Source: Candidatus Nanoarchaeia archaeon | Lineage (GTDB): Archaea; Nanobdellota; Nanobdellia; SCGC-AAA011-G17; GW2011-AR18 | DNA: 63,610 nucleotides | Reading direction: 5' to 3' | Assembly: GCA_035289605.1 (NCBI GenBank) | Contig: DATDWR010000007.1 | Coordinates: forward strand, 1-63,610 | Shown: piece by piece, positions 25,106 through 49,044 of the stretch | Layout of the letters: each line of letters opens with the position of its first letter | Position numbering within the stretch: the first letter of the stretch is position 1 | The notes under the pieces: model-generated | What the model was told of the DNA's origin: nothing | Seen by the model: only the letters and a program-made list of their open reading frames with translations | Database searches by the model: none | Program-made: the position numbers and the translations under genes

Positions 25106-25125
25106 AAGTTTTCTAAAAAAATAGT

Positions 25126-30639: not shown

Positions 30640-31386
30640 ATGAAACTAACTCTCACAGAACCAAGATACCTAAAGGACAGCATCCTGATCATTTCTGAAC
30701 TTGTGAACGAAGTAAACCTAAAATTCTCCAAAGACAAAGTAGAACTGATAGCAATGGATCCTGCAAATGTAGCAATGGTAGTGTTTAAGCTGCTAAGCAG
30801 CGCATTCTCTGAATACAATATCAAGGAAGAAAGAGTAATAGGAATAAATCTTGTGAACCTGACTCAGATACTAAAAAGAGTCAAGCCTACAGACATACTT
30901 ACATTAGAATTAGATGATGACAGAAACAGGCTGAGAGTAATAATAAAAGGAACAACTACAAAAAGATTTGAGCTAAGCTTATTAGATATAGATGAGAAAG
31001 AACAAAAAATGCCCAGCTTGAAATTCAGCGCAAGGGTAGAGACAAATACGTTAATGTTCAACGACACAATAGAAGACATGGATATAATAGGAGACAGCCT
31101 CAGCTTGCAAGCTGCAGACTCAAGTTTCATAGTAGAATGCGAAGGAACTGTAAGCCACGGAAGAGTAGAAATAAACAGCGATGAAGAAACAAATGTCGAT
31201 GCAGGCGGAAAAGCAGTAAATGCAAGGTACTCAATAGAATACATGAAAAAGATCATCAAGGGCGGAAAACTAACAAACATGGTAACATTGGAATTTGGAC
31301 AAGACTATCCTCTTAAAGCGGAATATAAAATTCTAGACAAATTAAACCTGCAGTTTATATTAGCTCCAAGAACACCAACAGACTAA
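30640..31386 (+). CDS. pcn: DNA polymerase sliding clamp PCNA
   Basis: ISELVNEV, AMDPANVAMV, YSIEY, DYPL, FILAPR. Confidence 0.97.
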   Translation: MKLTLTEPRYLKDSILIISELVNEVNLKFSKDKVELIAMDPANVAMVVFKLLSSAFSEYNIKEERVIGINLVNLTQILKRVKPTDILTLELDDDRNRLRVIIKGTTTKRFELSLLDIDEKEQKMPSLKFSARVETNTLMFNDTIEDMDIIGDSLSLQAADSSFIVECEGTVSHGRVEINSDEETNVDAGGKAVNARYSIEYMKKIIKGGKLTNMVTLEFGQDYPLKAEYKILDKLNLQFILAPRTPTD

Positions 31387-32046: not shown

Positions 32047-32811
32047 ATGCATAAAAAAAGAGGGCAGGTAAGCACATTCATAATAATAGGCCTTGTAATC
32101 TTATTTGTATTTATACTAATATTTTTTCTAAGAGACCAAATAAGGGAAAAATTCAGAGCAGCAACAAACACAGAAGAATACCTCAACTCCCAATTAAGCC
32201 AAATAAAAAAAAATGTTGACTCATGCATAGTAAAGGAAACAGACAAAGCAACAAAAATTCTGGGAGAAAGTGGAGGATACTTCAACCCTGCAGATTACGT
32301 AAGTTATTATGGAAAAAGAGTCAGCATATTGTGCTCTAACATAGAAAATGAAAAAAAATGCAATGCAAAACCTCTAGACCTAGAAGAAGTAAACTCAAGA
32401 CTTAGTGACTATTTAAAACCTAAAATAAAAAACTGCATAAACTTAAGCCCATACAGAAACAAAGATTACACTCTTACTTCAGGAGAATTTGAATTAACAA
32501 CAGACATAAAACCTGATTCAATACTTGTCGAAGTAGAGTATCCAATAACATTAACATTAGAAAACAGCGAAGCAAAAATTTCCCAATTCAAAAACAAACT
32601 TGAAATACCACTCGGACAAGCAGTAGTACTAGCAAATACTGTAATAAGTGAAGAAGCGAACAAAGGAGCGTTTGATGTAATGGTTGCGAGCCTGCTATCA
32701 AGAGGTAGCTTTACAATAAGAGAAAGAAAAAGCTACCCGCACAAGATATATGTAATAGACTTTTGGAACGGAAAGTACATATTTAATTTTGCAATAGAAG
32801 GAGAAGAATAA
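32047..32811 (+). CDS. class III (prepilin-like) signal peptide protein, cassette 1
   Basis: KRG|QVSTFIIIG then a hydrophobic helix; VDSC...GGYF; C-terminal FNFAIE. Confidence 0.75.
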   Translation: MHKKRGQVSTFIIIGLVILFVFILIFFLRDQIREKFRAATNTEEYLNSQLSQIKKNVDSCIVKETDKATKILGESGGYFNPADYVSYYGKRVSILCSNIENEKKCNAKPLDLEEVNSRLSDYLKPKIKNCINLSPYRNKDYTLTSGEFELTTDIKPDSILVEVEYPITLTLENSEAKISQFKNKLEIPLGQAVVLANTVISEEANKGAFDVMVASLLSRGSFTIRERKSYPHKIYVIDFWNGKYIFNFAIEGEE

Positions 32812-35800
32812 TGAGGCTAGCGAAAAGCGATGGTCAAAAAAAAGCTGTGGCTGGATTTGAAATTTATCTAGTAATTAGTTTGGTTTTCTTACTTTCAATG
32901 AGCTTAAATTCACAACAAGTACAAGCTAATCCAGGACAGGAGCCTAGCGAAGTTGTCTCGTGCTGCAAAAAAGCGAAAACAGGAGAGTACTGCGTTGATG
33001 GAATATCTACAGAACAATGCGAAGAAGGATATGCAGGAGGGGTTAACTGCGCAAGTGCAGCAAACGGATGCAATAACAGGGGATGCTGCAGCGTGAATAA
33101 CCAATGCACAAAGGGAGTAATACAAGCAGCCTGCCAGGGAGAATATTACCCAAACGAAGAATGCAATGTAGAACAATGCCAGCCAAAATGCTGCGTTCTA
33201 GGAAACAGCTGCGGATTAACCACTGAAGAAAATTGCCAAGAATTAGGCGGTACAGTAAACCAAGATACAACAGATATAATAAGCTGCAACAGAGTATGCG
33301 AAACCAAAACAAAAGGATGCTGCAAAACAGAAGACAAGTACGAGTATGCGTCAGGAGACAGTTGTCAGGGAGAATTCTTTTCAAATCAGCCATGCAAAAG
33401 AGTAGAAAACTCAAACTGCAATGAAAATAACCCAGCTATAGGATGCATAGGAAACGATCTATACAGCTATAATTCCTGCGGAGACCAAACACTAGTGAAG
33501 AAATGCGACAGTAGGCAAGGGGAAATATGTAGTGACAAAGATGGTGATGGGAAGTTTGCGTGCGAGGATATGAATTGTCAAGCGACTTGGGACAACCCAT
33601 TGGTGGATGAGGATGGAGATGGAAACTTAGCAAACGACGGAAAGGCAAGAAAACAAGGAGAAAGCTGGTGCGAGTATCAATCTGCAGTCGGGCCTGGCAT
33701 GGATCTTCCGGGAACAGCACACTACCTTCACAGCTGCGTAAATGGAAAAGAAGAAGTAAAAATGTGCGGGCAAGGAAAAAGAGACCAGATATGTGTTTAC
33801 TTTGATGTTGATGAAAGCAACAATTACCCATTCTTTTCTGGCGAAGGAAAAGTTGCGCAATGCATAGATAATGAATATGAAAGCTGCATAGCATGCAATG
33901 ATATTTCTTTGGATCCTGAAAAAAGAGAAGAAGCTGGACAGACAGACACAAGAGCAAGCTGCTGCCAAAAAGCAGGACTATGCCAATGGATGGGCGTTGG
34001 AAAAACCACAGAATTAGAAGATGTTGGAGGCTTGGAATTTATTTATGTTCCAGACACTAGAATAATTTCGTTTTTAGACAGAAGTTATGCGTCTCCTGAT
34101 TTTTTGAGCAGAAAAGAAAAAGATTTACTAAAGACTACTGGAAAAATATATATATTCGATAAAGAGATACAGGGCAAACTATCAGACACTACACTATTAT
34201 TTACTAGTGAGGAAAAAACAGAGCACAACAAGAGTCTTGGAGAAGCAAGAGTTAGTGATGAAGAATGGAATGAAGAAGACCAAATAGCTTACACTTACAC
34301 ATTAAAGCTAGATACATTAGCAACTAAATTTTATGATGTAAATATTACTTACGGAAACGTAAATGAATTTTTAGTGAGTTTTGAAATGCCTGCAACTTCA
34401 GAAGAACAAGGCACATGCTTACCATTAGTACCTCCAGGAAACATTCCACTAAAAACTTTAGATAAAGAAAATTATAGGACAAGTATAGAAGAAGCTGATG
34501 AATTATGCGGAAAAGCAGGCCTAGAGAAAATTCCAGTCGGATGGAGAGAAGATTTATGGGACGATGACTGGCACTGCAAAAAGAATTGTGATGTATATCC
34601 TGAAAGAAACAGATCATTACTGTACGGACAAAATTATATCTGTAACTCCTATGGAGACTGCGGGGCAAAGTGGAACTTAGCACAAAAATGGTCAAGCCAG
34701 GCATATTATTTTGATTGCGGAGACCTTGATGATACAGACCAGAGCAGAGAATGCAAAAGAAAAAAATATTTCATAGACACGCCTCCGCAGGAATTTAACT
34801 TTGAAAAATACAAGAACGCATGGAAAGGGCTATATTTTGGTAAATTGGATATAGACTTTAATTATTATAATTATGTCGGAAATTCTAACCTCAAACTTGC
34901 AGGAGGCATAGCTACATTGATAGGTTTTGGTGCTGTTTCTGTGTTCCTTGCGGTACCGATAGCAATTGCTGCAGTTGGTGTTGGTGGTGCTGCAGGAGCA
35001 TTAGTAGGCTTGGCATCTGTTGGAGCTGCTTTTGGAGTTGTTGGGCTTACTATTGTTGCTTTAGTTATATTATATGTAGGTGTGGAGTTAATATATGAAG
35101 CATTTAGAAATTCCGAAACAAGATATTCAGGTACTGTCTGTGAATCATGGAAGGCACCAACACAAAATGAATGCTGGAAATGCCACACCTTCAGCAATGA
35201 AACAAGAGACCATGAGACATGCGATTACGGAAGCGAAGAATGCGGATTACTTCCTGCAATAAAAACAGGACCAAGTGATGGGTATTCATGCACGCCACAA
35301 TTATGCTCAAGCCTAGGTAAAGACTGCTTATGGCAAGAAAGCGAAGTAGGACCAAGATGCATAGAACAAAGAGAAAGGGATGTAAACTCACCAATAATAA
35401 AAGTCAAAGAAACAAAATATGTATGCAACGCTGAAGGAACATGCGGAGAACAGACAGGAGATAATCCTTCGGGAATACAAGGAACAACAGAAATAACAGG
35501 AGAGATAAAACCGGGACATACTATCGTCTTGCGGCTGGAGACCATAAATCCGGCAGACAATGGAGCAGATCTAACGAAATGCAGATACACATTTGAGCCG
35601 CAAAAACCATACGAAGAAATGGAAGACATTGGAGACGGACTAAGCTTTGAACATAACATAGAATTCAATTCAATAGAACCAGGAGAAAAAGAATTGTATA
35701 TTGCATGTGAAGACATAGTAGAGAATCGTAATGAAGATAAATATCTTATGAAGTTCAAAGTTGCAGAATATCCAGACATAGCAGCTCCAATAATAAGGGA

Positions 35801-36801
35801 AGTGCGAACAGCGAATGGTGTAGGTGGATGGACAATAAACGAAGGACAGAAAGAAACAGCATACGTCGGCTACGGACAAGGAACAATAGAACTTGAATTA
35901 GTGCTTAATGAAGAAACACCATTAAACGGATGCAAATGGACAAACTCAAGCGCAAACGTAGAATTTGAAAACATGAACAAATACTTTTCATGCCAAGAGC
36001 CAAGTGACATAACAATTCCTTATTCATGCAAAGGCCAAATAGAAGTACCGGAAGAAAAAACAGGAGAGAACAAAGAACACAAAGTGTGGTTCAGATGCAT
36101 TGATGTTCAAGGAAACAAAGCACTGCAGAGCATTCCACAAGAAGGATTCAAAATAAAAAGAACAGAAGCACTAAACATAACAGAAATGAAATGCTTGGGA
36201 CAGTTCTCAGAGAAGTGCGAAGGAACAATTTACGATCCCAAAGTAAATCTAAAATTAACAACAATCGGAGGTGTGGACGGAACATCTGACTGCAAATGGG
36301 ACAGAGGAGAAGGAGAAGTGGAATTTTTCAAAGGACAAGGAACAAGCGAACATGAGCAGCCGGACTACCACCTAACGCCTGGCGACAACAGACTGGTATT
36401 TAGGTGTGTAGATAAGGCAGGAAATATAGCAACGCAAGAAGCAACATTCAAGCATGAAAAAGATGTGACCGCACCGAAGATAACAAAGATATACCAAAAC
36501 AATGGACAACTTACAATAGACACAAATGAATATGCAACATGCAAATATACTGCGATGCAAGAAGAGAACATAGACTACAGCCAAGAAGGAAACGAACTGC
36601 TAAGAGAAAACAATGGAATGAAACACACATTATCCTTGCAAAACAATTACTACAAAGTAGGCTGCATAGACAGATTTGAAAACGTGGTAGGACCATTCAA
36701 CATTTATGTAGAAAGCACATCATAAAAACATTTAAATACAAAGCCGAGGAGACTATAAGCATGAGTAAAAGAGGGCAGGTAAGCACATTCATAATAATAG
36801 G
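32056..36801 (+). repeat. 35-nt identical direct repeat at the starts of the two KRGQ genes
   Basis: AAAAGAGGGCAGGTAAGCACATTCATAATAATAGG at 32056-32090 and 36767-36801. Confidence 0.85.
32811..36725 (+). CDS. giant Cys-rich exported protein with central Gly/Ala hydrophobic hairpin and C-terminal Ig-like repeats, cassette 1
   Basis: N-terminal TM; GCC repeats; GESWC; GDCG; about 65-aa hydrophobic segment; CxSW.AP; DV.(S/A)P.I and CxDxxGN repeats. Confidence 0.8.
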   Translation: MRLAKSDGQKKAVAGFEIYLVISLVFLLSMSLNSQQVQANPGQEPSEVVSCCKKAKTGEYCVDGISTEQCEEGYAGGVNCASAANGCNNRGCCSVNNQCTKGVIQAACQGEYYPNEECNVEQCQPKCCVLGNSCGLTTEENCQELGGTVNQDTTDIISCNRVCETKTKGCCKTEDKYEYASGDSCQGEFFSNQPCKRVENSNCNENNPAIGCIGNDLYSYNSCGDQTLVKKCDSRQGEICSDKDGDGKFACEDMNCQATWDNPLVDEDGDGNLANDGKARKQGESWCEYQSAVGPGMDLPGTAHYLHSCVNGKEEVKMCGQGKRDQICVYFDVDESNNYPFFSGEGKVAQCIDNEYESCIACNDISLDPEKREEAGQTDTRASCCQKAGLCQWMGVGKTTELEDVGGLEFIYVPDTRIISFLDRSYASPDFLSRKEKDLLKTTGKIYIFDKEIQGKLSDTTLLFTSEEKTEHNKSLGEARVSDEEWNEEDQIAYTYTLKLDTLATKFYDVNITYGNVNEFLVSFEMPATSEEQGTCLPLVPPGNIPLKTLDKENYRTSIEEADELCGKAGLEKIPVGWREDLWDDDWHCKKNCDVYPERNRSLLYGQNYICNSYGDCGAKWNLAQKWSSQAYYFDCGDLDDTDQSRECKRKKYFIDTPPQEFNFEKYKNAWKGLYFGKLDIDFNYYNYVGNSNLKLAGGIATLIGFGAVSVFLAVPIAIAAVGVGGAAGALVGLASVGAAFGVVGLTIVALVILYVGVELIYEAFRNSETRYSGTVCESWKAPTQNECWKCHTFSNETRDHETCDYGSEECGLLPAIKTGPSDGYSCTPQLCSSLGKDCLWQESEVGPRCIEQRERDVNSPIIKVKETKYVCNAEGTCGEQTGDNPSGIQGTTEITGEIKPGHTIVLRLETINPADNGADLTKCRYTFEPQKPYEEMEDIGDGLSFEHNIEFNSIEPGEKELYIACEDIVENRNEDKYLMKFKVAEYPDIAAPIIREVRTANGVGGWTINEGQKETAYVGYGQGTIELELVLNEETPLNGCKWTNSSANVEFENMNKYFSCQEPSDITIPYSCKGQIEVPEEKTGENKEHKVWFRCIDVQGNKALQSIPQEGFKIKRTEALNITEMKCLGQFSEKCEGTIYDPKVNLKLTTIGGVDGTSDCKWDRGEGEVEFFKGQGTSEHEQPDYHLTPGDNRLVFRCVDKAGNIATQEATFKHEKDVTAPKITKIYQNNGQLTIDTNEYATCKYTAMQEENIDYSQEGNELLRENNGMKHTLSLQNNYYKVGCIDRFENVVGPFNIYVESTS

Positions 36802-37522
36802 AATAATACTAGTAATTGTTGTAGCTTTAATATTCTTTACAAGAAAACAAACAGGCATAGGAATACCGGCAGCAGAATTCTTAAGCGACAAACTAAAGCC
36901 CATAGAAAGAGATCTAAAGACTTGTGTTGATAAACAAGCAGATACAACTGTAAAAACATTTTTGGAACAAGGAGGAGAATTCTTCCCAAATTATTACGTT
37001 CAATACCAAGGAAAAAAAGTGAAAGTATTGTGCAAAAATATTCCTGGAGATGACAAGTGTTTAAATTATTTGCCGCCACTGAATATAATGGTAGATGAAT
37101 TGAATACGAGAATGCAATTAGAGATAGACAAATGCGTAAACAAAAATTTGTTAAAATCTGAAACTCTTGGAGGATACGATGTTGTCGGTGGGTTACTTAC
37201 GACAAAAACTGAGGCTACAGGAAGCGGGTTGCTAGTCACTGTAAATTACGATGTTGAAATAAGGAAGGGAGAGGAAAGCACGAAACTTGGAAAAGTAAAC
37301 AAAGTATTAGATATTCCATTGAAAGAATTATATGATGTAAGCGTAGATATTGTGAACAGCGAGGCACGCTTTGGGTTCTTTGAACAATTATTTTACATGC
37401 TCAATAAAAAAGGAAAGTACATAATAAACATAGACAAGCCATTTCCCCATAAAGTATACAAAATTAATAAAAATGGGAACAAGCATGAATTCTGGTTTGT
37501 AGTTGAAGGTGAGCCATCATGA
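36761..37522 (+). CDS. class III (prepilin-like) signal peptide protein, cassette 2
   Basis: KRG|QVSTFIIIG; collinear with 32047 (GGxFxP, ILC.NI, PHKxY, FxFxxEGE). Confidence 0.75.
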   Translation: MSKRGQVSTFIIIGIILVIVVALIFFTRKQTGIGIPAAEFLSDKLKPIERDLKTCVDKQADTTVKTFLEQGGEFFPNYYVQYQGKKVKVLCKNIPGDDKCLNYLPPLNIMVDELNTRMQLEIDKCVNKNLLKSETLGGYDVVGGLLTTKTEATGSGLLVTVNYDVEIRKGEESTKLGKVNKVLDIPLKELYDVSVDIVNSEARFGFFEQLFYMLNKKGKYIINIDKPFPHKVYKINKNGNKHEFWFVVEGEPS

Positions 37523-40500
37523 GCGGAAAGAAACGGCTAGCGAAAGGCGTTAAACGAATTGCGCTACTTGAGATGTTTTTAATAATTAGTATTGCTTTTA
37601 CTATAAGTTTTAGTATTAATGCGCAGGAAGTATATGCTGATACTGTTTGCTGCGAAAAAACAGTAGACAATCAATACTGCCAGACTGTTGATTCAAGTTT
37701 GTGTGCGCAAGGATCTGCGAGAGCACCAACAAGCTGCGAACAAACAAGCTTCTGCAAATCAGGATGCTGCGCTGGAGTTGGAGGATACTGCTACAATAAC
37801 TACCCAAAAGCACTATGCGAGAAACAATATGGAGGAAGCTACAGCGAAGATCCGAACTGCGGAGTAGCGGAATGCAAATCAGGATGCTGCGTGATAGGAA
37901 CACAAGCTTCATTGCTAACAAAAAACAGATGCATAGAAGAAACAAGCAAATTTCCGGATCTTGAAGTAGACTTTAGAGAAGGAATACAAGATGAAGCTAG
38001 CTGCGTCGACATTGCAAGAACAACAGAAAAAGGATGCTGCGTAAAAGATAACGGTTGCAGCTACGGCACGAAAGCGGAGTGCGGAAGTACGACAAGTGTC
38101 AACGGCACTGGATTCTATAAAGATAAATTCTGCAGCCAACTACAAGGACTTTGTGATTGTGCGCCAGCAGACAAGTCGACAGGCGGAAAAGGAAATACAA
38201 TGTGCCTGCCAAATGATGATAGTGTATACTGGAAAGATTCTTGCGGGAATGCAGAAGGCGTAAAGGAAAAATGCAATTACAATCAAGGAACACTTTGTGG
38301 GGACAGCGATAAGGATGGAGTATTTACATGTGAAAGCCTGAAATGCGAAGGACAGGGAGTGTCAAAGGACAGGAGTAATGATCTGAGCGTCAATCTAGAG
38401 AATTATCACGGAACAAATCCTTCTGAACTAAAAGCAAATGAACTACTAAATGGAGAAAGCTGGTGCCAAGCAGACAGCAAAGAACAAGACGACAACTTAT
38501 TATTCGGAAGAGATACTGTAGGCTCAAGATACTATAGGAGTTTGTGCATCAACGGACAGGAGCTTATTGAGCCGTGCAAAGATTTCAGGCAAGAATTCTG
38601 TTATTCAGCATCTGTTGATGTTCCTACAAAAGATGAAAGAGGAAATGCGCTAAGAGGCGGGAGATATACTGAAGCAAGATGCTTGAAAAATGAATGGCAA
38701 TCTTGTATTGATTCATGCAATACTGCTGATTCTTTTACAATGGGCGAAAGAGAATACAAAGAAGCAATTGAAAAAGACTTACAATGTTGCGAAGACAGAA
38801 CAAAAAGAGACTGCAGATGGACAGGAAATAAATGTGTGCCTGCAGTAAGTCCTGGAGCAAAATTCTGGGAAGGAGAAGGAGCAGATGTTTGCGGCAAAGC
38901 TAATTTAGAATGTACTGCATTTTTTGTATGCGGAGGATGGAACAGATTGTTTGGATTGTGTGGGGGAGAAGAAGAAGTTGGAGCAAGCGCTGCAGTTTCT
39001 GGTGCTGGAGCAGCAGGAGCAGCAATAGGAGCAGGAATTGCTACAGGAGGAGCAATAATACCAATAGCATTATCAGCAGCATTGGCAGCTACACTAATTG
39101 GATTAAAAGAAGGTGTTAAAGGTGGAAGCGGCTGGAAACTTGTTCATGGGGAAGAATGCTTCAGCCAAGACTATCTACAAGCAGCAAATAATTTATGCAG
39201 AAGCTTTGGGGATTGCGGAACAGATTATAATTATTTAATAGATGATGATAAAGTACCAACGAATTTAAAACTGACAAAATATGGATTTTTCAATACTGAA
39301 TTTACAGACGGAGAATTAGCAGGTGCTGTGAAGGATGAGGTAGATGAAGGAAAAAAAGAAAAAGAGTTATATTATAAATTTGGAAAAGACAAAGATGAAG
39401 TTCCTGGAAACTTAAGTGATAACCCTAGTTGGGAGGAAGGGAAAACCTTCTTGAATTTCGGAACTGTAGACAAGAAAGGTAGAACTAGCAAATATTTGAG
39501 GGCTTTATATTTTGGACAGGAAGAAGGAGGACTAGGCAATCACATATATGGAGCTGCCGTTCCATTAGTTGGAAGCATAGGTTTGGGAGTACTTGCTCAT
39601 GCTGTTGCTGGTCAAGGATTCTTAACTAGCTTAGGAGTTGGCTTGGGAGCAACACCACATGGCTTATTGATAAGAGGAATTTTTGGAGCAATATTTGGAG
39701 GAGAAGCAATATTTGGGAAAGGGGTTACTGGAATTGTGAGTGAAGCAAGTGTTGATGATCTATTAGTTAAAGAAGCAAATGCAATAGCAGGAGAGGAGGG
39801 GGGTAAAATAACAACTAAAAAAGCTGCTGAAGAATTGATAAGTAATACTGCTCAAGCTGCTGCTGACGTCGAACTTGCTACTGCTCAACAAGCTTTTTCT
39901 CAAGCTGCTGCTGAGCATGGTGCTAATCTAGCTAAAGAAGCGATTTCTGAAGCGACACAGAATGCCTTATTACCAGATTCATCACAAACTGTTACCCAGG
40001 CCATTCAAGGTATACAAGGACAAACTTTGAATAGTGTTAATGCTTTTGGGCCCTCTGCTAAAGCCAGTGCTGAAAAGGTCTTCCAGGATGTTCTTTCAAA
40101 GACAGGGCCTGCACGAACTAAAGATTTGGCTGGTCGAGAGGCTTATAAAATTGTTGGAACTGGTGATGTTCCTATTACAAGAGTGGCTAATTCTAATGAA
40201 GCATTCGAAGTAGCAGATTCTGCATTAACTACTGCTCGGAATAATGTAAAAGATGCTGGGAAAAAAGCTGTTGAAGGGTTAACCCAAACAGCAAAAGAAG
40301 CAGGTAAAGAACTAACTAAAGCACAAGTACTAACTGCAATAAATGCAGCAATGTGGGCATACTCAATATACCAACTAGGAGATACACTATTAGAAAAAAC
40401 ACAAACTCAGACAATAAAAACAACATGCCAGCCATGGCAAGCACCAGCAGTAAAAGTAGGACAAAAAGATCAATGCGAAAGATGCAATCCGGGATACGGC

Positions 40501-41976
40501 GACTACTTGGACAATGAAAAAAATCCTAAGGATGTAAGAGCACTCAAAGCGTGCAGCGAATACCGTTGCAAGAGCCTAGGAGTAAGCTGCGATCTAATAA
40601 ACAAAGGATCAGAAGAAGAGAAATGCATAAGCCTATCGAAGTATGATGTAAACAGCCCAGTAATCAAGCCATGGAAAGAAGGATTCAGCAAGGAACTAAG
40701 AGACAAAATAAAAGAAACAAACACAGGATTCAAAATAGAAGGAGAAATACCAATCTACGAGAGATTCGTAACTGGACTAAGAACTGACGAGCCTGCACAA
40801 TGCAAGATGAGCTTCCAGCACAGCAAAAGATACAATGAAATGGAAAACATTTACTTCATGAGCAACACATTCAAGTACTTCCATGTGCAAGAAATGTTCT
40901 ATCCTGCATCAAAGAACATAACAAATGAAGGACTGAAACTAACAGGCGGGGGAGACTACAAAGTATATGTAAGATGCCAAGATGCAGTAGGAAATGCAAA
41001 TGAAAAAGACTACGTAATAGAATTCAAAATAGCAAAAGAACCAGACCTGACTGCACCAACTATAATTGGAACAAGCATAGGAAAAGATACATACTTAACA
41101 CATGGAACAGACCAAGTAGATTTAACACTATTTGTAAACGAGCCAGCAGAATGCAAATGGAGCTTGACACCATTAGATTACAGCGGAATGCAAGAAACAA
41201 ACAAGTGCACAGCGTCAAGACTAAACTCATTAGGATTGTATGAATGCCAATACGCAGGATCTGGAGTTGGAGGATCAATAGGGCCAGCAATCACAGGAAT
41301 AAAATCAAAAGCAGGAGAAACAAAATTTGCATATTTCAAATGCCAAGACAAATCAGAAAAGAAAAACTTCAACAAAGAAGCATTTAGGATAACACTAAAA
41401 GGAAGCGACCCATTAAAAATAGACAACAGCAGCATAGAACCTAAAGGGACAATAAAGACAAGCAGAGACCAAGCAAACGTCACATTGAAATTAGCGACAG
41501 TGGGCGGGGCGGAGTTAAACGGAAGGGCAACATGCAAATACACGCAACAAGAAAGCCTGAAAGAAAACTTAGCAGCAATGACTCCTTTCCTGAATACAAA
41601 CTCCAGCCTGCACACACAACCATGGGAGCCGCCAACAGGAAGACAAGAAATATTTGTTGGATGTCATGATCTAGCAGGAAATGCAAACTTCACAAAAATA
41701 GAATTCACAATAGAACAGGATGTAACAGCACCAAAAATAACCAAAGTATACAACGATGAAAGCCTGCAGCCACCTTTGTTTACAGTTGAAGTAAGCGAGA
41801 AAGCAACATGCAAAGACAGCACAGAAGGAACATTTGAATATGAAACTGAAGGAAACCTAATGACAAGAGATGGAAACGTGCACAGAACAAGCACTCCTGG
41901 ATCAAATTTGTATTATGTTGTGTGCAAGGATGAATTCGGAAACCTGATGGAGCCTGCAAGAGTACAGTTTGCTTAG
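37519..41976 (+). CDS. giant Cys-rich exported protein with expanded hydrophobic/Ala-rich core, cassette 2
   Basis: Same motif order as 32811 (CC, GESWC, CxPxVxPG, GDCG, CQPWQAP, DVNSPVI, CxDxxGN); three hydrophobic segments. Confidence 0.8.
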   Translation: MSGKKRLAKGVKRIALLEMFLIISIAFTISFSINAQEVYADTVCCEKTVDNQYCQTVDSSLCAQGSARAPTSCEQTSFCKSGCCAGVGGYCYNNYPKALCEKQYGGSYSEDPNCGVAECKSGCCVIGTQASLLTKNRCIEETSKFPDLEVDFREGIQDEASCVDIARTTEKGCCVKDNGCSYGTKAECGSTTSVNGTGFYKDKFCSQLQGLCDCAPADKSTGGKGNTMCLPNDDSVYWKDSCGNAEGVKEKCNYNQGTLCGDSDKDGVFTCESLKCEGQGVSKDRSNDLSVNLENYHGTNPSELKANELLNGESWCQADSKEQDDNLLFGRDTVGSRYYRSLCINGQELIEPCKDFRQEFCYSASVDVPTKDERGNALRGGRYTEARCLKNEWQSCIDSCNTADSFTMGEREYKEAIEKDLQCCEDRTKRDCRWTGNKCVPAVSPGAKFWEGEGADVCGKANLECTAFFVCGGWNRLFGLCGGEEEVGASAAVSGAGAAGAAIGAGIATGGAIIPIALSAALAATLIGLKEGVKGGSGWKLVHGEECFSQDYLQAANNLCRSFGDCGTDYNYLIDDDKVPTNLKLTKYGFFNTEFTDGELAGAVKDEVDEGKKEKELYYKFGKDKDEVPGNLSDNPSWEEGKTFLNFGTVDKKGRTSKYLRALYFGQEEGGLGNHIYGAAVPLVGSIGLGVLAHAVAGQGFLTSLGVGLGATPHGLLIRGIFGAIFGGEAIFGKGVTGIVSEASVDDLLVKEANAIAGEEGGKITTKKAAEELISNTAQAAADVELATAQQAFSQAAAEHGANLAKEAISEATQNALLPDSSQTVTQAIQGIQGQTLNSVNAFGPSAKASAEKVFQDVLSKTGPARTKDLAGREAYKIVGTGDVPITRVANSNEAFEVADSALTTARNNVKDAGKKAVEGLTQTAKEAGKELTKAQVLTAINAAMWAYSIYQLGDTLLEKTQTQTIKTTCQPWQAPAVKVGQKDQCERCNPGYGDYLDNEKNPKDVRALKACSEYRCKSLGVSCDLINKGSEEEKCISLSKYDVNSPVIKPWKEGFSKELRDKIKETNTGFKIEGEIPIYERFVTGLRTDEPAQCKMSFQHSKRYNEMENIYFMSNTFKYFHVQEMFYPASKNITNEGLKLTGGGDYKVYVRCQDAVGNANEKDYVIEFKIAKEPDLTAPTIIGTSIGKDTYLTHGTDQVDLTLFVNEPAECKWSLTPLDYSGMQETNKCTASRLNSLGLYECQYAGSGVGGSIGPAITGIKSKAGETKFAYFKCQDKSEKKNFNKEAFRITLKGSDPLKIDNSSIEPKGTIKTSRDQANVTLKLATVGGAELNGRATCKYTQQESLKENLAAMTPFLNTNSSLHTQPWEPPTGRQEIFVGCHDLAGNANFTKIEFTIEQDVTAPKITKVYNDESLQPPLFTVEVSEKATCKDSTEGTFEYETEGNLMTRDGNVHRTSTPGSNLYYVVCKDEFGNLMEPARVQFA

Positions 41977-42016: not shown

Positions 42017-43270
42017 TTATTCACTTTTTAACAGCCATTTATATGCAGGAATAACTTCTATATCGCCGAATTTCTTTTCCAAATCTAATGTTAATATAAT
42101 GCCTTTCCTGATATTAAACTTTTTCATTGCTTCTTTAAGACCAGTCAGTTCTCTTTCTAAATTATTATCATTTAAATTATAGCATACCTGTATAGCCTTA
42201 ATTATTTTATCTTTCTCTTTAATAATAAAATCACACTCGTATTTTTCTTTATAATAAAATATTTCCTTAAATCTTCTTTTTAATTCCAACATTATTACAT
42301 TTTCAAAAAGTCTTCCAATATCCCTGCTTAGTGTAAAATTAATCATAGAACTAAGACCTGTATCTATAGAATATGACTTCTTAATTGTCTGCTTTGCTAA
42401 AGATTCAGAGAAACTATTTATAATCATTAATATATAGGCATCTTCACAATAGTCCAAAAACTTATACAATGTGTCCTTGCTGATTTTTACACCTTCGGAT
42501 TTAAAGCTGCTAAATATTTTGTTTACTGAAAATTCCCTAGAAGTATTTGAGATCAGTCTTTTAATAAATAATTTTAACGACAAAATATTGGTAATACTAT
42601 ATCTCTCTGCAACATCCCTATAAATCATAACTTCAAAATAACTTTCTAAACTTTTCTCATATAATTCTTTTTCCATATTAATCACTTCTGGAAAACCGCC
42701 TTTCAATATGAAATTGTTTAAATTTGAAATTAATTTAGCTTTGCCTTTAGTTGAATAACTATCTAATTCCACATTTTTAAATTTTAGGTATTCTTTAAAA
42801 GACAGCGGATAAACCTCAAAAGTTATAGTTCTACCTCTTAGGCTTGCTGCAATTTCTTTACTTAATAGTTTAGATGATGATCCTGTAATAAATATATTTT
42901 TAGTTATTGTATCGTATAATCTTCTTATAAATCTTTCCCATCCTTTAATTTCCTGTATTTCGTCAAAGAAAAAAAATAAATCTTGTTCTCTTTTATTTGG
43001 GTATAACTCAAAATAAGACTCTATAATAATATTTAAATTACCAGATGTTAATTCAAGCCTTTCATCCTCAAAATTAATATATATAACATTTGTAATGTCT
43101 TTTAGTTTTAGTATCGTCTGGTACATAAGATATGTTTTTCCAGATCTTCTAGCACCAATTATACTTATAACTTTATTTGAATTTAATGGTATATTTATTT
43201 CTCTTTGTATTACTTGTGGCAGACCTCTACTATGGAAATCTTTTATTATTTGTTTTATTACTTCCTTCAT
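42017..43270 (-). CDS. AAA_14 ATPase with C-terminal DUF4143 domain
   Basis: GARRSGKT, YINFEDER, FFDEIQ, ITGSSS, LRGR, GGFPE, FEN, ECDF, IQVC. Confidence 0.9.
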   Translation of the reverse strand: MKEVIKQIIKDFHSRGLPQVIQREINIPLNSNKVISIIGARRSGKTYLMYQTILKLKDITNVIYINFEDERLELTSGNLNIIIESYFELYPNKREQDLFFFFDEIQEIKGWERFIRRLYDTITKNIFITGSSSKLLSKEIAASLRGRTITFEVYPLSFKEYLKFKNVELDSYSTKGKAKLISNLNNFILKGGFPEVINMEKELYEKSLESYFEVMIYRDVAERYSITNILSLKLFIKRLISNTSREFSVNKIFSSFKSEGVKISKDTLYKFLDYCEDAYILMIINSFSESLAKQTIKKSYSIDTGLSSMINFTLSRDIGRLFENVIMLELKRRFKEIFYYKEKYECDFIIKEKDKIIKAIQVCYNLNDNNLERELTGLKEAMKKFNIRKGIILTLDLEKKFGDIEVIPAYKWLLKSE

Positions 43271-43278
43271 AGTCTTTC

Positions 43279-43324
43279 TATAAGGAAACTAATATATAAA
43301 TCTTTCCTTTATATAAGGAAACTA
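43279..43324. promoter_or_regulatory. repeated TATAAGGAAACTA boxes flanking the minus-strand TATA box of the ATPase gene
   Basis: 13-nt copies at 43279-43291 and 43312-43324; the second is part of the palindrome TTTCCTT-TATAT-AAGGAAA; TATA at 43293-43300. Confidence 0.55.
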
Positions 43325-43325
43325 T

Positions 43326-43645
43326 ATGCAAGGCTAATGATGTGTGAAACTGAAGGAACTTACATACCTAATATAGAAATAAAATTTCCAGCAGTAATAT
43401 TAGATAATACTGCTTTAGCTGAAAAAAAATGTATAGTTCTAAATAAGAATATTATATTATTTATAGCCCCAATAGAATTACAAATCCCATTTAAAATTTA
43501 TCTAGGAAGCGATAAGGATATAGAAGACGCTCAACACTTATATTACATATTTAATGATAAGATTAATAAGAGTCTAATGCGAGAATTTGCCAGAAAGCTT
43601 AAAATAGAAGGAGAACTTGATAAGATTGAAAATGGAAGTCCCTGA
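43326..43645 (+). pseudogene. N-terminally truncated nucleotidyltransferase-like gene remnant
   Basis: Only a C-terminal FIAPIELQIPFKIYLGSDKDIEDA region remains; the upstream part of the called ORF overlaps the ATPase promoter. Confidence 0.45.
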
Positions 43646-43775: not shown

Positions 43776-43830
43776 TTGACCTATGATTTAGAGAAAACTA
43801 TAATAAATAGTAAAAATAAAATTATATTGA

Positions 43831-44355
43831 ATGAAAAAAGCACAATTGCTGTCACAACCATTCTTCTGGATTTTTGCAATAGTAGTAATGGGAATAATAT
43901 TAATATTTAGCTGGAACGCAATAAGAGACCTAGTAGGATTTGGAGAGAAAGTCGGCACAGTAAAACTAATAGAAGACATAAAAAATGAAGTTGAAGAAAT
44001 AGCAAAATCATTTCCAGGAACGAGCATAGAATGTGCATTAACTAGAAGAGCAGGAAGTTCAGACAATGAGTGTGAAATAATTGCACCAAGCGACTTAAAA
44101 GGCATGTGCTTTGTTGATACTAATTCTCCTGTAGACTTTAGTAAGATAGAATTCAAGAACGTGAAAGAAGAAGTGCAAGTAGTTCAGGGAACAGGAGACA
44201 GAAATGTTTTCTTTGCAACTATAAAAAACCCAATAGACTCAATATACATTAATAAATTAAAACCTAAAGAACATTTCTGCCTGAACATACAACAGGGTAT
44301 GAAGAAATTTATTCTGGAAAACAAGGGAAAATTTGTTGAAATTAGAAAATCCTGA
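43831..44355 (+). CDS. class III signal peptide (pilin-like) protein
   Basis: KKA|QLLSQPFFWIFAIVV. Confidence 0.72.
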   Translation: MKKAQLLSQPFFWIFAIVVMGIILIFSWNAIRDLVGFGEKVGTVKLIEDIKNEVEEIAKSFPGTSIECALTRRAGSSDNECEIIAPSDLKGMCFVDTNSPVDFSKIEFKNVKEEVQVVQGTGDRNVFFATIKNPIDSIYINKLKPKEHFCLNIQQGMKKFILENKGKFVEIRKS

Positions 44356-44426
44356 AAATTTTCAAATTTTGATCTAAGAATTTTTAACAGAAAGAATTAA
44401 ATTCAAGCTAAAAAATTAAAACTGCA

Positions 44427-45419
44427 ATGAATAAAAGAGGACAGGCAGAGCAGTTCAACTGGATATTTGTAATTGTAGCAGGAGCGATAATACTAGGGTT
44501 TTTCACAATGTTCGTGTTTCAATACATAGACTTGCAGGAAAAAAGACAAGAGGTAGAAAGCGTAAGGTTCTTCGGTAATGTGCTAAACGTCCTAGAAAAG
44601 CTACAAATAGGAGACGCAGGATATGCAGTAAGAAGCACAGACACACAAGGCCTAAGATTCGGATACAAAGTTGACTTGTCTTATTACTGCAAAGGAAATG
44701 ATGCAAAGATACTAATCAATAAAGGAGAAATAGCAAGCTACAACCTAGCAAATGAAATAGTGTTCACAGAAGAAAAACAAAGAGTCAACGGCTTGACTAT
44801 GGGAATAATGCCCTGGATATACCCTTTTCACATAACTAATTTTATTTACTTATCAGACCCGAATAAGATATACCACATAATTTATGATGAAAGTAGTGAA
44901 GAATTTGTCAACAGACTTGAAGAAGAAAATGAAGTAATCTTTAATGCAATAAAGTATGAAAAGACAAGAATCAACGAGCTCAAACCCAAACAGAACTCAA
45001 AAATTATAATATTCTCCAGCCAGAAACCATATGAAACAAAAATAAAAGAACTGAAAGGCAGTGGAAACTCTAACTTTGTACATGTCAACATTAACACTGA
45101 AAAAATAAGCTTCTTTGGAAGGAACGGCTGGGAAGATGAGATTAAATATTATGGAAATCCAATGCTTTTGGGAAGCTTATTTATGGATAATACAGAAGCA
45201 TATGAGTGCAACGTGAACAGGGCATTCGAGAGGCTAAAGACAGTAACTAACATTTACATAGAAAGAACTGAGCTTTTGAAAAGAATAGATCCAAAGCAAG
45301 AATGCCAATACGAATTAATAGTGAGCAGTTTAAGAAAATTTTCTGAAGGAGACTATAAAATGGCTGAAAATCTTGCAGAACAAAACAATCAAGGAGCAGG
45401 ATGTCTATGGGTGTTCTAA
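44427..45419 (+). CDS. class III signal peptide (pilin-like) protein
   Basis: KRG|QAEQFNWIFVIVAGAIILGFF. Confidence 0.72.
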   Translation: MNKRGQAEQFNWIFVIVAGAIILGFFTMFVFQYIDLQEKRQEVESVRFFGNVLNVLEKLQIGDAGYAVRSTDTQGLRFGYKVDLSYYCKGNDAKILINKGEIASYNLANEIVFTEEKQRVNGLTMGIMPWIYPFHITNFIYLSDPNKIYHIIYDESSEEFVNRLEEENEVIFNAIKYEKTRINELKPKQNSKIIIFSSQKPYETKIKELKGSGNSNFVHVNINTEKISFFGRNGWEDEIKYYGNPMLLGSLFMDNTEAYECNVNRAFERLKTVTNIYIERTELLKRIDPKQECQYELIVSSLRKFSEGDYKMAENLAEQNNQGAGCLWVF

Positions 45420-45970
45420 AGCGATGCAGGCGACATGCGACTTGGGGTAGGAGTCTTGGGAAGAAAGGACAATTGCAGATACAGGAAACCATACTTGTCG
45501 TATTTGTCTTTGTTATAATAATAATATTAGGAATGTTCTTTTTCATAAACTACCAAAAAAGCAGCATAAAAAATGACTTTACTGAATTCCAGAGAACAAA
45601 AGCAAGGAGCAATATAATAACTTTAGGAGAAATGCCTGAACTAGCATGCAGCAAGGGAGGGATAAAGGAGGCATGCGTAGACAGCCTTAAGCTAGTCGCT
45701 TTCAAGAACCAAGCAGAAAAGAAAAAAACAGAATATGCAGAAAGATTTGGGCATCTTAACATTACACTATATATAATGTATCCAAAGAGACAAACTAAAA
45801 GAGAATGCAACAAAGACAATATTGAAGAATGCGAAATCTGGAACATTTATGCAAGAAAACCTTTGAAAGTAACAAGCAAAATAGTAGAAAAAACTCCAAT
45901 ATCTCTATATAATCCTAAAAAAGATACATATTATATTGCTTTAATGATTGTGGAGGCATATAATGTCTGA
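45401..45970 (+). CDS. class III signal peptide (pilin-like) protein
   Basis: KKG|QLQIQETILVVFVF; PELACS...CVD.LK. Confidence 0.7.
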   Translation: MSMGVLKRCRRHATWGRSLGKKGQLQIQETILVVFVFVIIIILGMFFFINYQKSSIKNDFTEFQRTKARSNIITLGEMPELACSKGGIKEACVDSLKLVAFKNQAEKKKTEYAERFGHLNITLYIMYPKRQTKRECNKDNIEECEIWNIYARKPLKVTSKIVEKTPISLYNPKKDTYYIALMIVEAYNV

Positions 45971-46454
45971 CGAACAGCGACAATTGGCAAGAGGCATTAG
46001 TCTTGGGAAAGCTGGGCAAATAGATATAATGGGGCTAATGATTGTGGTCATACTAATAATAATAGGAGGCTTATTCTACATTAAATATGGAGTGTTACAA
46101 GATAAAGAAATGCAAAGGGATATTTCTCTAGACCAAAGCTATGCTATAAATCTTCTAAATTCCCTATTAAATGTAAAGGTTTGCGAGGAAACTATAATGA
46201 TTGGAGAGGCTATGGTTGAGTGTTTTAATGAAGGAAAAATATGTGAAAAAGAGGCTTGTGAATACTTGAAACCTCAAATAGAAGAAATAATAGCTGCTGT
46301 CGGACTTAAAGACTTTAAAAAATATTCATTATGGATAGAAAAAGGAGACAATGTTAAGTACATAACAGAGGATTGCACAACAGGCGTAAAAGCTGACGAG
46401 CTGCTTAAAACAGATGATAACGAAGATTACACGGTTAATTTTAGGATATGTTAA
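45963..46454 (+). CDS. class III signal peptide (pilin-like) protein
   Basis: KAG|QIDIMGLMIVVILIII; start refined to ATG45963. Confidence 0.7.
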   Translation: MSDEQRQLARGISLGKAGQIDIMGLMIVVILIIIGGLFYIKYGVLQDKEMQRDISLDQSYAINLLNSLLNVKVCEETIMIGEAMVECFNEGKICEKEACEYLKPQIEEIIAAVGLKDFKKYSLWIEKGDNVKYITEDCTTGVKADELLKTDDNEDYTVNFRIC

Positions 46455-46674: not shown

Positions 46675-49044
46675 ATGCAAGAAAAATTTGCTTTAAGAAA
46701 GACACTAAGAAAGGTAGCAGCAGTAGGTACTAGCATTGCAATGGTAGGAGTAACCTTAAGCGGCGCCTTAGCAGCTGGGACATTAGGAGACTATCCAAGC
46801 CCATTCAACAAAAACGTTGGAGAAACAGTGATAGTATTTGGCTCAGATGCAGATAATGCAGCAGTACAAGATGTTCTAGCAGGATTACCTGGCGGAGCAG
46901 CAACCGCTACAACTACTACAACAGTAACACCTGGAAAAGTAGTATACGGACTAAACAGTGTGGGAGACCAAAAAGTAGATGACCTATTCAGAAAAGGGGA
47001 CAAAGAAGACCTAGTACTAGGAACACTGTTAAACGACTCAAACGAATTCGGAAACAAACTACAAGACAACCAGATAGATGGCTTGCTTGACAGTACAGTA
47101 AGAATAGATATAGGTTCAACAAGTGATGACTATAACTTCCATGAAGAAGTATACTTTAACGGAGTAACTACTAATACTTCAAGCGTAGAGACAGGCTTGA
47201 CTTTTGATAGAGATGAGAAATGGAAGGAAAATGTATTTGTACAAATACCTGGAAACAGCTTTGGATACAGATACAAATTTGATAAGACACTAAAAGCAGG
47301 AAACTACCTAAACTTCTCAAGTTCAGATGACCCAATAGACCTACAATTCTTGGGACAAAACTTAGAAATAACTGCAGCAGCAAACACAAGCCTTACAGCA
47401 AATGTAGGAACAAAACATGTAATGGCTGCAGGAGACAGCGTTGTAGTAAATGTAGGCGGGACACAAAGAACAGTTACACTAAAAGGAACATCAAGCGCAA
47501 ACAAAGCTGATGTAGAAGTTGATGGTGTAAGAGATGTAATTCCGCAAGATAGTACAAGAACCTTTAGGTTTACTACAGGAAAAAACGTTCAAGTAAGAGC
47601 AGAAGACGTGTTTGATGAAGACGGAGTTGCAAACGACAGGGCCACACTTATAATTGGAGAAGACGCAAGAAAGACATACAATGATGGAGACGAATACATA
47701 GGAGAAGACAAAGACGATCCTATATGGGTATGGAACTTGGCTGGACTACGAACAGGAGATCCAACACTAGAGGTACAAAATTCTTATGGAGTGGACAACT
47801 GGAGAGAAGATGCAAACCCTCTTGTAAAGCACGCAATGTACAAAGGAGACTATTTCTGTATGCCAAACAACTATATATGCTTGGTATTCGAAAGTATGAG
47901 CGAAGAAGACGAAAACTTCCAGCAGTATACAATTGAGGCAGACACTTTGGAACTATCCGACGAAGATGGAGACTCAAACAGGAGATCAGGAACAAAAGTG
48001 TTAATCTTCAGAGCTGATGGAGCAAGCGATAGAGGCTTTAAAGCTGGTGATGATGAAACAGACGCAATAGCAATAGCAATGAATGCATCAGAGATAACCC
48101 TATATAGAAAAGAACAAGACGGAAGCGAGTACATAAGATTCAACAACAGGTCCTTAAATATGGGAGCAGCTGGAGCAGGAGGATGGGGATCAACATTTAA
48201 TGTTAATTTTAGTAACGCCTTTAACTTTGACTATAAGAGTACATCTGTGCCTGTAGATATATTGATGGGTAACGTCTCGGCAAAAGGTGATGTAGTTACA
48301 AGATATGGAGGAAACATCACAATAGACTTTGGAACAGATGATGCAGTATCTGTGGACGGAGGAACAGACGGAAACTTAATAATAAAGTTTGAAAACTCAA
48401 CAACCAATGGAATTGAATACTTTGGTTCAAGCGACTCAGACACAACAACAGCAAATGACATAAGGTATAACCATTTAGGAACATTGTATGCTATAGAGGG
48501 AAAGGAAGAAAACATGAGAACAAAGCAAGGAGTAATCATCTACGACCCTAAGGCAGACCAATCTGGTGACAGAATGAGATTGGCAATGGCTGGAGACGTG
48601 AATGACTACAAAGCAAATATTAGAGTAGCAAGACCTAAAGAAGGAGCTGTAGAAGGCGGTGGTGTTGTAAAGAAAGCAGCAGATGTGACTATGAAAGATT
48701 CAGAAGTCACAGACTTGACAAAGTACAACGCAGTAGTTGTAGGCGGACCTTGCGTAAATAAGGCAACAAGACAACTATTGAACATGGCTGTAGACACACC
48801 AGTTTGCGGAACAGACAGCGGACTAACAGGCCCAGGAGAGGCAGTAGTTGAGATGAAAGCAAACGGCGCAAAACAAGCATTGTTAGTATGGGGATGGGAA
48901 GCAGACGACACAAGAAGAGCTGCGGTACTATTAAAAGACCCAACAGTATTCAAGCAAAAACTAACAGAAGCTGGAAAGAGCGCAGCAACTCAAGTAACAG
49001 TCAAAGGAACAGACTTAAGCCTATCTGGAATAACAGTAGCTTAA
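46675..49044 (+). CDS. S-layer protein
   Basis: RKVAAVGTS..MVG.T..GALA signal; LGDYPSPF; acidic body; C-terminal VVVGGPCVN...GWEADDTRRAA; strong SD. Confidence 0.85.
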   Translation: MQEKFALRKTLRKVAAVGTSIAMVGVTLSGALAAGTLGDYPSPFNKNVGETVIVFGSDADNAAVQDVLAGLPGGAATATTTTTVTPGKVVYGLNSVGDQKVDDLFRKGDKEDLVLGTLLNDSNEFGNKLQDNQIDGLLDSTVRIDIGSTSDDYNFHEEVYFNGVTTNTSSVETGLTFDRDEKWKENVFVQIPGNSFGYRYKFDKTLKAGNYLNFSSSDDPIDLQFLGQNLEITAAANTSLTANVGTKHVMAAGDSVVVNVGGTQRTVTLKGTSSANKADVEVDGVRDVIPQDSTRTFRFTTGKNVQVRAEDVFDEDGVANDRATLIIGEDARKTYNDGDEYIGEDKDDPIWVWNLAGLRTGDPTLEVQNSYGVDNWREDANPLVKHAMYKGDYFCMPNNYICLVFESMSEEDENFQQYTIEADTLELSDEDGDSNRRSGTKVLIFRADGASDRGFKAGDDETDAIAIAMNASEITLYRKEQDGSEYIRFNNRSLNMGAAGAGGWGSTFNVNFSNAFNFDYKSTSVPVDILMGNVSAKGDVVTRYGGNITIDFGTDDAVSVDGGTDGNLIIKFENSTTNGIEYFGSSDSDTTTANDIRYNHLGTLYAIEGKEENMRTKQGVIIYDPKADQSGDRMRLAMAGDVNDYKANIRVARPKEGAVEGGGVVKKAADVTMKDSEVTDLTKYNAVVVGGPCVNKATRQLLNMAVDTPVCGTDSGLTGPGEAVVEMKANGAKQALLVWGWEADDTRRAAVLLKDPTVFKQKLTEAGKSAATQVTVKGTDLSLSGITVA

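Follow-up and report, generated by a model that had tools for sequence, protein, structure and literature searches.

A class III signal consists of a short basic leader ending in Gly or Ala (or Ser), followed by a hydrophobic helix of ~20 residues. A Glu at position +5 is kept in most bacterial pilins and is absent from the pilins of Sulfolobus and Haloferax. In bacterial minor-pilin/PilY1 tip complexes and in the GspH-I-J-K proteins of the type II secretion system (T2SS), small pilin-like genes stand together with a large non-pilin adhesin, in an operon apart from the ATPase. A pairing of large and small proteins encoded by adjacent genes is also found in the Sulfolobales, where SlaA is a large outer protein rich in immunoglobulin (Ig) domains and SlaB is a small membrane-anchored partner. 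In Methanococcus maripaludis, class III signals of the EppA type have a leader whose last residue is Gly, followed by Gln at +1 and, further on, Glu at +5, and methanococcal pilin-like proteins of up to ~300 aa are scattered over several loci away from the ATPase (PMC3875500). A 2026 survey reports a 'system 1' with two platform genes in Nanobdellati and notes, in archaeal type IV filament (T4F) loci, large adhesin-like proteins of the Ig fold (PMC13705601). Here we describe two consecutive gene pairs, termed S-G cassettes, on a 63,610-nt stretch of DNA from a Candidatus Nanoarchaeia archaeon (the window; GenBank assembly GCA_035289605.1, contig DATDWR010000007.1, forward strand). The source genome is archaeal, 839 kb, and 86% complete.

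Each cassette encodes a small protein with a pilin-like class III signal (S) and a very large, exported, Cys-rich protein (G). The S and G families together form a genuine module that is not due to chance, is widely conserved, and has no annotation, and which we regard as a variation on the known theme of pilin-linked adhesins. Our preferred reading, to which we give a probability of roughly 0.55, is that S-G is a DPANN-specific, class-III-signal-linked surface adhesion complex of two proteins, anchored in the membrane of the cell that produces it.

The S-G cassettes and their families

The first cassette consists of S1 (32047..32811, 254 aa) and G1 (32811..36725, 1304 aa; type A, with a hydrophobic core), and the second of their paralogs S2 (36761..37522, 253 aa) and G2 (37519..41976, 1485 aa; type B, with a long core), all on the forward strand. 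The stop and start codons overlap as TAATG between S1 and G1 and as ATGA between S2 and G2. The four open reading frames (ORFs) are thus found exactly as in the preliminary description, as two consecutive, translationally coupled pairs. S1 and S2 are 33% identical (E 6e-38), and G1 and G2 are 27–28% identical over the N-terminal ~400 aa (E 1e-35) and again over the C-terminal ~530 aa (E 5e-37). The ordered Cys scaffold that had been proposed for the two giants is present in both, with GESWC, CxPxVxPG, CxSxGDCG, CxxWxAP, DVNSPxI, and CxDxxGN motifs. It had further been claimed that G1 and G2 differ completely between GDCG and CxxWxAP; the flanks indeed align far better than this region, but it does contain a single weak patch of similarity (25%, E 4e-4).

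Neither protein belongs to a described family. No significant match was found in Pfam or NCBIfam for S1, G1, S2, G2, a fused S-G protein, or four further pilin-like proteins of the locus (pl1–pl4), and the S-layer models in these two databases did not match S or G. A profile of 97 sequences gave 0 matches at E ≤ 1 among PDB chains, and an ESM Atlas search returned only unnamed Nanobdellota clusters. Together with the Foldseek searches below, this agrees with the initial statement that no characterised equivalent is known. We found no paper describing the S/G family, a search that did not cover the supplements of PMC13705601 (S10 figure, DPANN loci), which may show related loci.

A search with G1 aa 1–1200 identified 509 cluster representatives (50% identity) at E ≤ 1e-3, mostly of 1000–1300 aa, including 85 at E ≤ 1e-30. 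The names given to homologs place the family in Candidatus Woesearchaeota/Nanobdellota. With S1, a word-indexed search picked up no more than 9 relatives; the S profile made from them matches 367 of 401 genomes sampled from the phylum. The G profile at E ≤ 1e-10 matches 227 of these 401 genomes, leaving 174 without a match, and it matches 68 of the 70 genomes of the window's order (families f1–f17, summed by hand). A few unpublished genomes (G396, G322, G243, G333, G244) are included in the phylum tallies, none of them from the window's order, and nothing else reported here depends on them. Alignments of G below use 119 homologs, namely those 1000–1500 aa long among 152 sequences (the best 150 of the 509 G1 matches plus G1 and G2).

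S1 contains a 6-aa leader ending in Gly, a Gln at +1, a hydrophobic helix (aa ~7–34), and an alpha/beta domain with four invariant Cys. The leader residues K4, G6, and Q7 and the four Cys are invariant in the S alignment (n = 10 sequences), and the basic K-x-G-Q leader with its hydrophobic helix is also present in S of 60 fetched loci. The class III arrangement of leader and helix is found in S1, S2, and pl1–pl4, including the homologs of pl1–pl4, and the invariant Q7 places in S the Gln at +1 that is typical of EppA substrates. The genome encodes, on other contigs, an A24 prepilin peptidase (PF01478), T2SSE ATPases (PF00437), and two T2SSF platform genes (PF00482). The leader and this machinery bear out the earlier view of the small protein as prepilin-like, and, judging from sequence, S is probably processed by the genome's own prepilin peptidase. 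An AlphaFold2 (AF2) model of S1 (mean predicted local distance difference test score, pLDDT, 88.1) shows the N-terminal helix, a second helix, and the alpha/beta domain. Foldseek of this model against the PDB gave nothing at E ≤ 1e-3, and the best match from an independent structure aligner (Z 7.9) is inside that program's stated noise band.

G1 and G2 contain 70 and 64 Cys, respectively (~5% of residues), most of which are invariant. From the N-terminus, G1 has four CC-headed six-Cys repeats (aa 51–212, 32961..33446), the Cys of which are invariant or nearly so among homologs, and then a conserved hub with GESWC (aa ~230–400, 33499..34010). A Cys-free insertion of ~130 aa follows that is specific to the G1 lineage (aa 401–530, 34011..34400; column occupancy 0.15 among the 119 homologs). 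The Gly/Ala-rich hydrophobic block, which we read as a two-helix membrane hairpin from its Kyte-Doolittle profile and its spacing to CxxWxAP, spans aa 694–766 (34890..35108). It is followed by the CxxWxAP-to-DVNSP module (aa 777–880, 35139..35450) and an array of Ig/FN3-like domains with CxDxxGN motifs (aa 881–1304, 35451..36722). Pfam Big_13 has a sub-threshold match to the C-terminus of G (E 0.17).

The N-terminus of G has the consensus K-x-K-A-x-F-(E/Q)-I, with a V-x-A site ~20 residues on, just before the first CC. From sequence, an ordinary signal peptide accounts for this pattern no less well than a prepilin leader does. The "Glu at +5" ascribed to both G proteins in the preliminary description hinges on cleavage points chosen by the reader, and we have set it aside in favor of this family pattern. 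The Glu/Gln itself (KA-x-F-E/Q-I) is conserved in the N-terminal helix, which is encoded at 32811–32930 for G1 and 37519–37640 for G2.

Pairing, fusion, and predicted binding of S and G

We fetched 60 regions around S matches and scanned their ORFs with hidden Markov models for S and for three parts of G, built from the 119 homologs. The whole S profile was matched by 48 ORFs, 46 of which had at least 1.2 kb of downstream sequence. A G gene lies on the same strand within 100 nt 3′ of S in 39 of these 46, often with an ATGA overlap; a further six have G within 2.5 kb, and one has none. The pairing, whose conservation had been set as a test of the original proposal, is therefore conserved for full-length S genes. 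S-like paralogs that match only the first ~200–225 profile positions are paired with G in 1 of 10 cases.

S and G are also found as one protein. Nine loci chosen for long open frames contain 10 fused ORFs of 1084–1306 aa, in the order S, G N-terminal tail, G middle, and G C-terminal part. The fused ORFs form one clade with a support of 100 in a quick tree of 48 rows, from which ORFs without a CxxWxAP match or with too little flanking sequence had been dropped. Split forms of G occur in seven other loci. Their first ORF, which starts with a plain signal peptide and contains no hydrophobic segment, stops shortly after GDCG; the second has a low-complexity linker, Gly-rich segments, and a strong transmembrane helix, followed by CxxWxAP and the C-terminal domains. 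A G-type N-terminal helix heads the second ORF in five of the seven split forms inspected (L034, L039, L048–L050).

We modeled a fused homolog (L054, 1123 aa; 97-row alignment) with AF2, giving a pLDDT of 92.2 and a predicted TM-score (pTM) of 0.86. Residues ~664–1123 are predicted to form a tandem array of Ig/FN3 sandwiches, with matches at Z 7–9.2 (best Z 9.2, root-mean-square deviation (rmsd) 2.9, 100 aligned residues), in line with the initial reading of the C-terminal units as Ig-like. In Foldseek searches of the PDB and BFVD, the fused model matched nothing but generic Ig arrays, at TM-scores ≤ 0.10. There is no PilY1 among the listed structural matches, a result to be read with the caveat that large multi-domain models can miss single-domain matches.

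Binding between the separate proteins was predicted with S1 aa 40–254 as the partner of G1 aa 230–690 and 767–1000. The S1-G1 complex scored 0.71, compared with 0.00 for the best control. Of 157 solved complexes, 116 reach the mark used by the complex tool, as do 2 of 215 mismatched pairs; our own alignments and three-chain set-up depart from this calibration. Contact agreement was at least 85% across three runs, and the partner pLDDT was at least 86. The predicted interface consists of G1 234–341, around GESWC in the hub, and G1 821–848, within the CxxWxAP-to-DVNSP module, facing S1 86–89, 211–231, and 241. These residues are invariant or nearly so in the S and G families. The model supports binding of S1 to G1, as a prediction rather than a demonstration.

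The core between GDCG and CxxWxAP

The preliminary description took the core of G for a swappable, membrane-inserting payload and proposed that it would be less conserved than the scaffold. Both flanking motifs were located by regular expression in 91 of the 119 homologs, and the remaining 28 were not counted. A strongly hydrophobic core segment is present in 74 of the 91, and the last such segment ends a median of 10 residues (interquartile range 8–12) ahead of the CxxWxAP Cys. Of the remaining 17, most have a G2-like amphipathic helix rich in Trp and Tyr. By column, the fraction of the most common residue across the 119 homologs is lowest in the hydrophobic block (0.17), compared with 0.41 in the N-terminal Cys-rich part and 0.36 in the Ig part. 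The sequence of the core is thus variable, as proposed, but its architecture is conserved.

The hydrophobic segments listed earlier for G1 and G2 are all present. In G2, these are a Gly/Ala segment 5′ of GDCG (aa 487–531, 38977..39111; aa 498–531 by Kyte-Doolittle), a Gly-rich core segment (aa 678–733, 39550..39717; aa 678–698 by Kyte-Doolittle), and the amphipathic Trp/Tyr-rich helix that marks type B (aa 935–954, 40321..40380), which lies ~15 aa before CxxWxAP, has the motif NTxxWxYTxYQxxD in homologs, and stays under the Kyte-Doolittle threshold. The segment at aa 487–531 is kept in 4 of 4 type-B orthologs from the same family and in few outside it. Gly-zipper-like segments recur among G homologs.

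In the fused proteins the core is short, at 107–113 aa in the seven ORFs with both motifs. None of the 10 fused ORFs has an internal hydrophobic segment, and neither do 36 of the 37 fused homologs with a length of 1000 aa or more; they keep the N-terminal S helix alone. A different device was found in five of ten other homologs inspected (P0045, P0069, P0087, P0096, P0136), which have a lipobox variant in place of the Gly/Ala hairpin. This variant is composed of an "RPEDF/Y" motif, a short hydrophobic stretch, a run of Arg/Lys, and a lipoprotein-type signal with a lipobox Cys, 10–25 residues before CxxWxAP. Such an arrangement would make it a hairpin with a cytoplasmic basic loop, and it suggests a possible cleavage of the protein into two halves, both of them anchored.

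Relatives with two cassettes have them in the same order as the window, the hydrophobic-core type first and the long-core type second. The tree places G2 among second-cassette genes (support 97–99) and G1 among the first-cassette genes of its own family (support 91). Since the two types are old paralogs with the same gene order in relatives, the cores are not exchangeable or shuffled cassettes. The family-wide conservation of a membrane-inserting element that would be looked for in a pore former is not seen, either in the fused clade or among G2-type orthologs, 7 of 14 of which have no strongly hydrophobic internal segment. No pore former, translocator, toxin, or fusogen is among the PDB and BFVD matches of the fused model, which is weak evidence because this model lacks the core. 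With a conserved hydrophobic architecture that is lost in the fused clade and core types that follow old paralogs, the idea of a swappable payload is not supported. The hydrophobic core is most likely the producer cell's own membrane anchor.

Surroundings of the locus, readings, and comparison with known systems

The cassettes are part of a syntenic block of PCNA, S-G cassettes, pl1–pl4, and a gene for a 789-aa exported protein, which is seen in many fetched loci. The PCNA gene (30640..31386, +; Pfam PCNA_N/PCNA_C) forms the conserved upstream boundary; by tblastn, 15 of the 60 loci have it upstream of their S-G cassettes. Between it and the first cassette, a gene for a membrane protein resembling lipoprotein intramolecular transacylase (Lit; PF07314; 31412–32044) ends 3 nt before S1, and its synteny is limited to the closest relatives (L014 and L017). 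Downstream of G2, an AAA_14/DUF4143 ATPase gene (42017..43270, −; by Pfam; GC content 0.26) separates G2 from pl1. No gene stands at this position in relatives, contigs C22 and C9 carry paralogs, and the gene was probably inserted recently. The four pilin-like genes follow on the forward strand: pl1 (43831..44355, 174 aa, KKA-Q leader and hydrophobic helix), pl2 (44427..45419, 330 aa, KRG-Q), pl3 (45401..45970, 189 aa, KKG-Q), and pl4 (45948..46454, 168 aa, KAG-Q). Homologs of pl1 lie directly 3′ of the last G gene in seven loci, and the pl1–pl4 order is kept. The 789-aa protein (46675..49044, +), which has a borderline S_layer_C match (23.6 bits versus a cut-off of 23.9), forms the conserved downstream end, and its homologs come after pl4 in L018, L021, L022, and L026–L029.

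Other genes of the window and genome also encode surface proteins. A run of exported Laminin_G_3 proteins (16866–27827) includes an 800-aa protein with 50 Cys (19480–21882) and a 305-aa protein with 14 Cys, and the window from 16 to 50 kb is a surface-protein island. Further downstream, a BatA/VWA/DUF7408/DUF58 cluster (50721–60137) contains a MoxR-type AAA_3 ATPase gene (56116–58956) split by an intein with Intein_splicing and LAGLIDADG endonuclease domains. On contig C20, two small genes (98815–99418, −; 66 and 139 aa) with K-A-Q leaders and hydrophobic helices are candidate major pilins. The same contig encodes a 676-aa protein (42882–44912, −) with an S-like leader and N-terminal domain, without a G partner or a Pfam match, and it has homologs of ~620–660 aa in nine other genomes (L063–L071).

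We propose that S is a type IV pilin-like subunit, probably processed by the prepilin peptidase, of a surface complex specific to Woesearchaeota-type DPANN archaea. The globular domain of S would dock on the hub of G, the most conserved part of this protein, at the GESWC region and at Cys827–Gly847 after CxxWxAP, and the exported G would project its CC repeats and Ig-like array outward, to serve in adhesion or recognition. Between GDCG and CxxWxAP, the hydrophobic block would form a helical hairpin in the cell's own membrane beside the S helix. Where S is fused to G, this hairpin would be dispensable and hence absent. The two ancient paralogs would use different anchors, a Gly/Ala hairpin in G1 and, in G2, a long Ala-rich insert with the conserved amphipathic Trp/Tyr helix. 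Four more pilin-like genes share the operon-like block of the module, so the type IV filament machinery, whose genes lie elsewhere in the genome, may assemble or display it. The role of S-G is likely adhesion or partner recognition, and a position at a pilus tip is possible.

Several points weigh against this proposal. The residue at +5 of S1 and S2 is Phe rather than Glu, neither Pfam nor NCBIfam gives a pilin match for S, and pilins and pseudopilins make up 6 of the 50 aligner rows for S, at Z 4.5–5.5 and entirely within the noise band. In five well-assembled relatives, the S-G locus is at least ~74 kb from any T2SSE ATPase or A24 peptidase, as compared by hand from the coordinates. The 60 regions were hand-picked from the best 150 of ~1470 S matches, so that the pairing counts describe a better-scoring, non-random sample. 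Disulfides are assumed for the many Cys; VKOR was not found in the 86%-complete genome, where the DsbA family was not searched for. The topology of the G1 hairpin is inferred from hydropathy and from the argument that both Cys-rich flanks lie outside. Finally, with half of the G2-type orthologs lacking a strongly hydrophobic segment, the anchor explanation does not cover the long core of G2.

The main, and more sober, rival is that S-G is a structural component of the envelope, a two-protein canopy resembling an S-layer, with neither a filament nor specific recognition of a partner. We consider this unlikely, though worth serious attention. The near-universal presence of the module in the order and its two conserved paralogous cassettes would suit such a role, as would the size, Ig-like domains, and membrane anchor of G, the coupled large and small genes that recall Sulfolobales slaA/slaB, and the other envelope genes nearby. 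However, the 789-aa protein of the same locus, with its borderline S_layer_C match, is the stronger candidate for an S-layer protein, S-layer proteins do not typically contain ~5% Cys, and S has a pilin-type leader rather than a Sec signal with a C-terminal anchor; G is also missing at E ≤ 1e-10 from 174 of the 401 phylum genomes. It would surprise us greatly if the cassettes were instead cargo of a mobile element or provirus, such as receptor-binding proteins, and not host genes. The GC content of the cassettes (0.38–0.41) is slightly above that of the flanks (0.26–0.33), the AAA_14 insertion adjoins them, and the BFVD matches are phage tail and Ig proteins, but these matches are the generic Ig arrays with TM-scores ≤ 0.10, PCNA and the pilin-like genes keep their synteny with the cassettes throughout an order, the tree follows taxonomy, and no integrase or viral hallmark was seen among the annotated neighbors.

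A third explanation, the original proposal, places S-G at the tip of a type IV filament and treats the Gly/Ala core as a payload that enters the host membrane to penetrate it, form a pore, or bring about fusion. Internal hydrophobic hairpins occur in otherwise soluble proteins such as colicin pore domains, the diphtheria toxin T domain, and the translocators of type III secretion systems (T3SS), and many DPANN archaea are attached to hosts. The core is Gly/Ala-rich and of hairpin length, with Gly-zipper-like segments recurring in homologs, the genome encodes filament machinery, and six class-III-type genes with two giant non-pilins per block resemble minor pilins with a tip adhesin. Conversely, the core is absent from the fused clade and from the 7 of 14 G2-type orthologs and so the family can do without it. 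Its constant distance of ~10 residues from CxxWxAP is that of a juxtamembrane anchor, one subfamily uses a short helix, basic loop, and lipobox signal that are a device of the producer membrane, and the core types follow orthologous groups without shuffling. The lack of toxin, translocator, or fusogen matches adds little, as the fused model has no core. We find this explanation improbable. In a harpoon-like version of it, pl1–pl4 would prime the filament with S-G at the tip, and the G1 hairpin or the G2 Trp/Tyr helix would leave the producer membrane upon extrusion and insert into that of the host. If true, this would start a membrane contact or cytoplasmic bridge for DPANN archaea feeding on hosts, with the two paralogs as two modes of insertion. 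The harpoon-like version is disfavored because whole clades lack the core and ordinary anchoring devices replace it elsewhere, and we give it even less credence.

To our knowledge, DPANN host recognition and attachment are largely unexplained, and almost no Woesearchaeota-type lineages have been cultured. Conserved in hundreds of related genomes, and with hundreds of protein clusters overall, the S-G module is a good candidate for the means by which these cells hold on to their partners. Two unannotated families with a predicted interaction, a confident model, and a pilin-like neighborhood offer a target for metaproteomics, cryo-electron tomography (cryo-ET) labeling, and heterologous expression. 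The fusion, split, and lipobox variants are also a natural experiment on the anchoring of a large surface protein.

Compared with the known systems, the hydrophobic stretch of G1 has the length of a hairpin, like those of colicins, the diphtheria toxin T domain, and T3SS translocators. Unlike in these proteins, the stretch is missing in the fused clade and replaced by a lipobox signal in one subfamily, and no fold similarity to them was found with the fused model, which lacks the core. The Aureispira hook adhesin GhpA (9flp) matches the C-terminal Ig/FN3 array (Z 8.1, rmsd 2.2, 83 residues), but this likeness is limited to a generic sandwich fold, and the Cys-rich N-terminal half and hub of G have no counterpart there. 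SlaA/SlaB resemble S-G in the pairing of sizes and in gene adjacency. In S, however, the anchor is N-terminal and pilin-like, G is Cys-rich with an anchor of its own, and there is no match in sequence or fold.

The gene layout of the S-G block is like that of the minor-pilin/PilY1 and GspH-I-J-K systems, and GspK is a weak structural match of S (Z 5.5). These bacterial systems have no detectable homology to the archaeal module, in which no beta-propeller is seen and G, with ~5% Cys, carries a signal peptide of its own and a hydrophobic block at its center. Streptococcus sanguinis PilB (7b7p), another weak match of S (Z 5.1), combines a pilin-type N-terminus with a bulky module, as do the fused S-G proteins, although their module exceeds 800 aa and is Cys-rich, and in the window it is a separate gene. 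Compared with the EppA substrates of M. maripaludis, S does not have Glu at +5 or a Pfam pilin/DUF361 match, and it has a distinct four-Cys domain of ~210 aa that is predicted to dock on its giant partner. S shares with the EppA-processed proteins of the Epd pili (T4F "system 1") a short basic leader ending in Gly, the Gln at +1, the hydrophobic helix, a length of 200–300 aa, and a location away from the ATPase, in a genome with two platform genes, as in "system 1".

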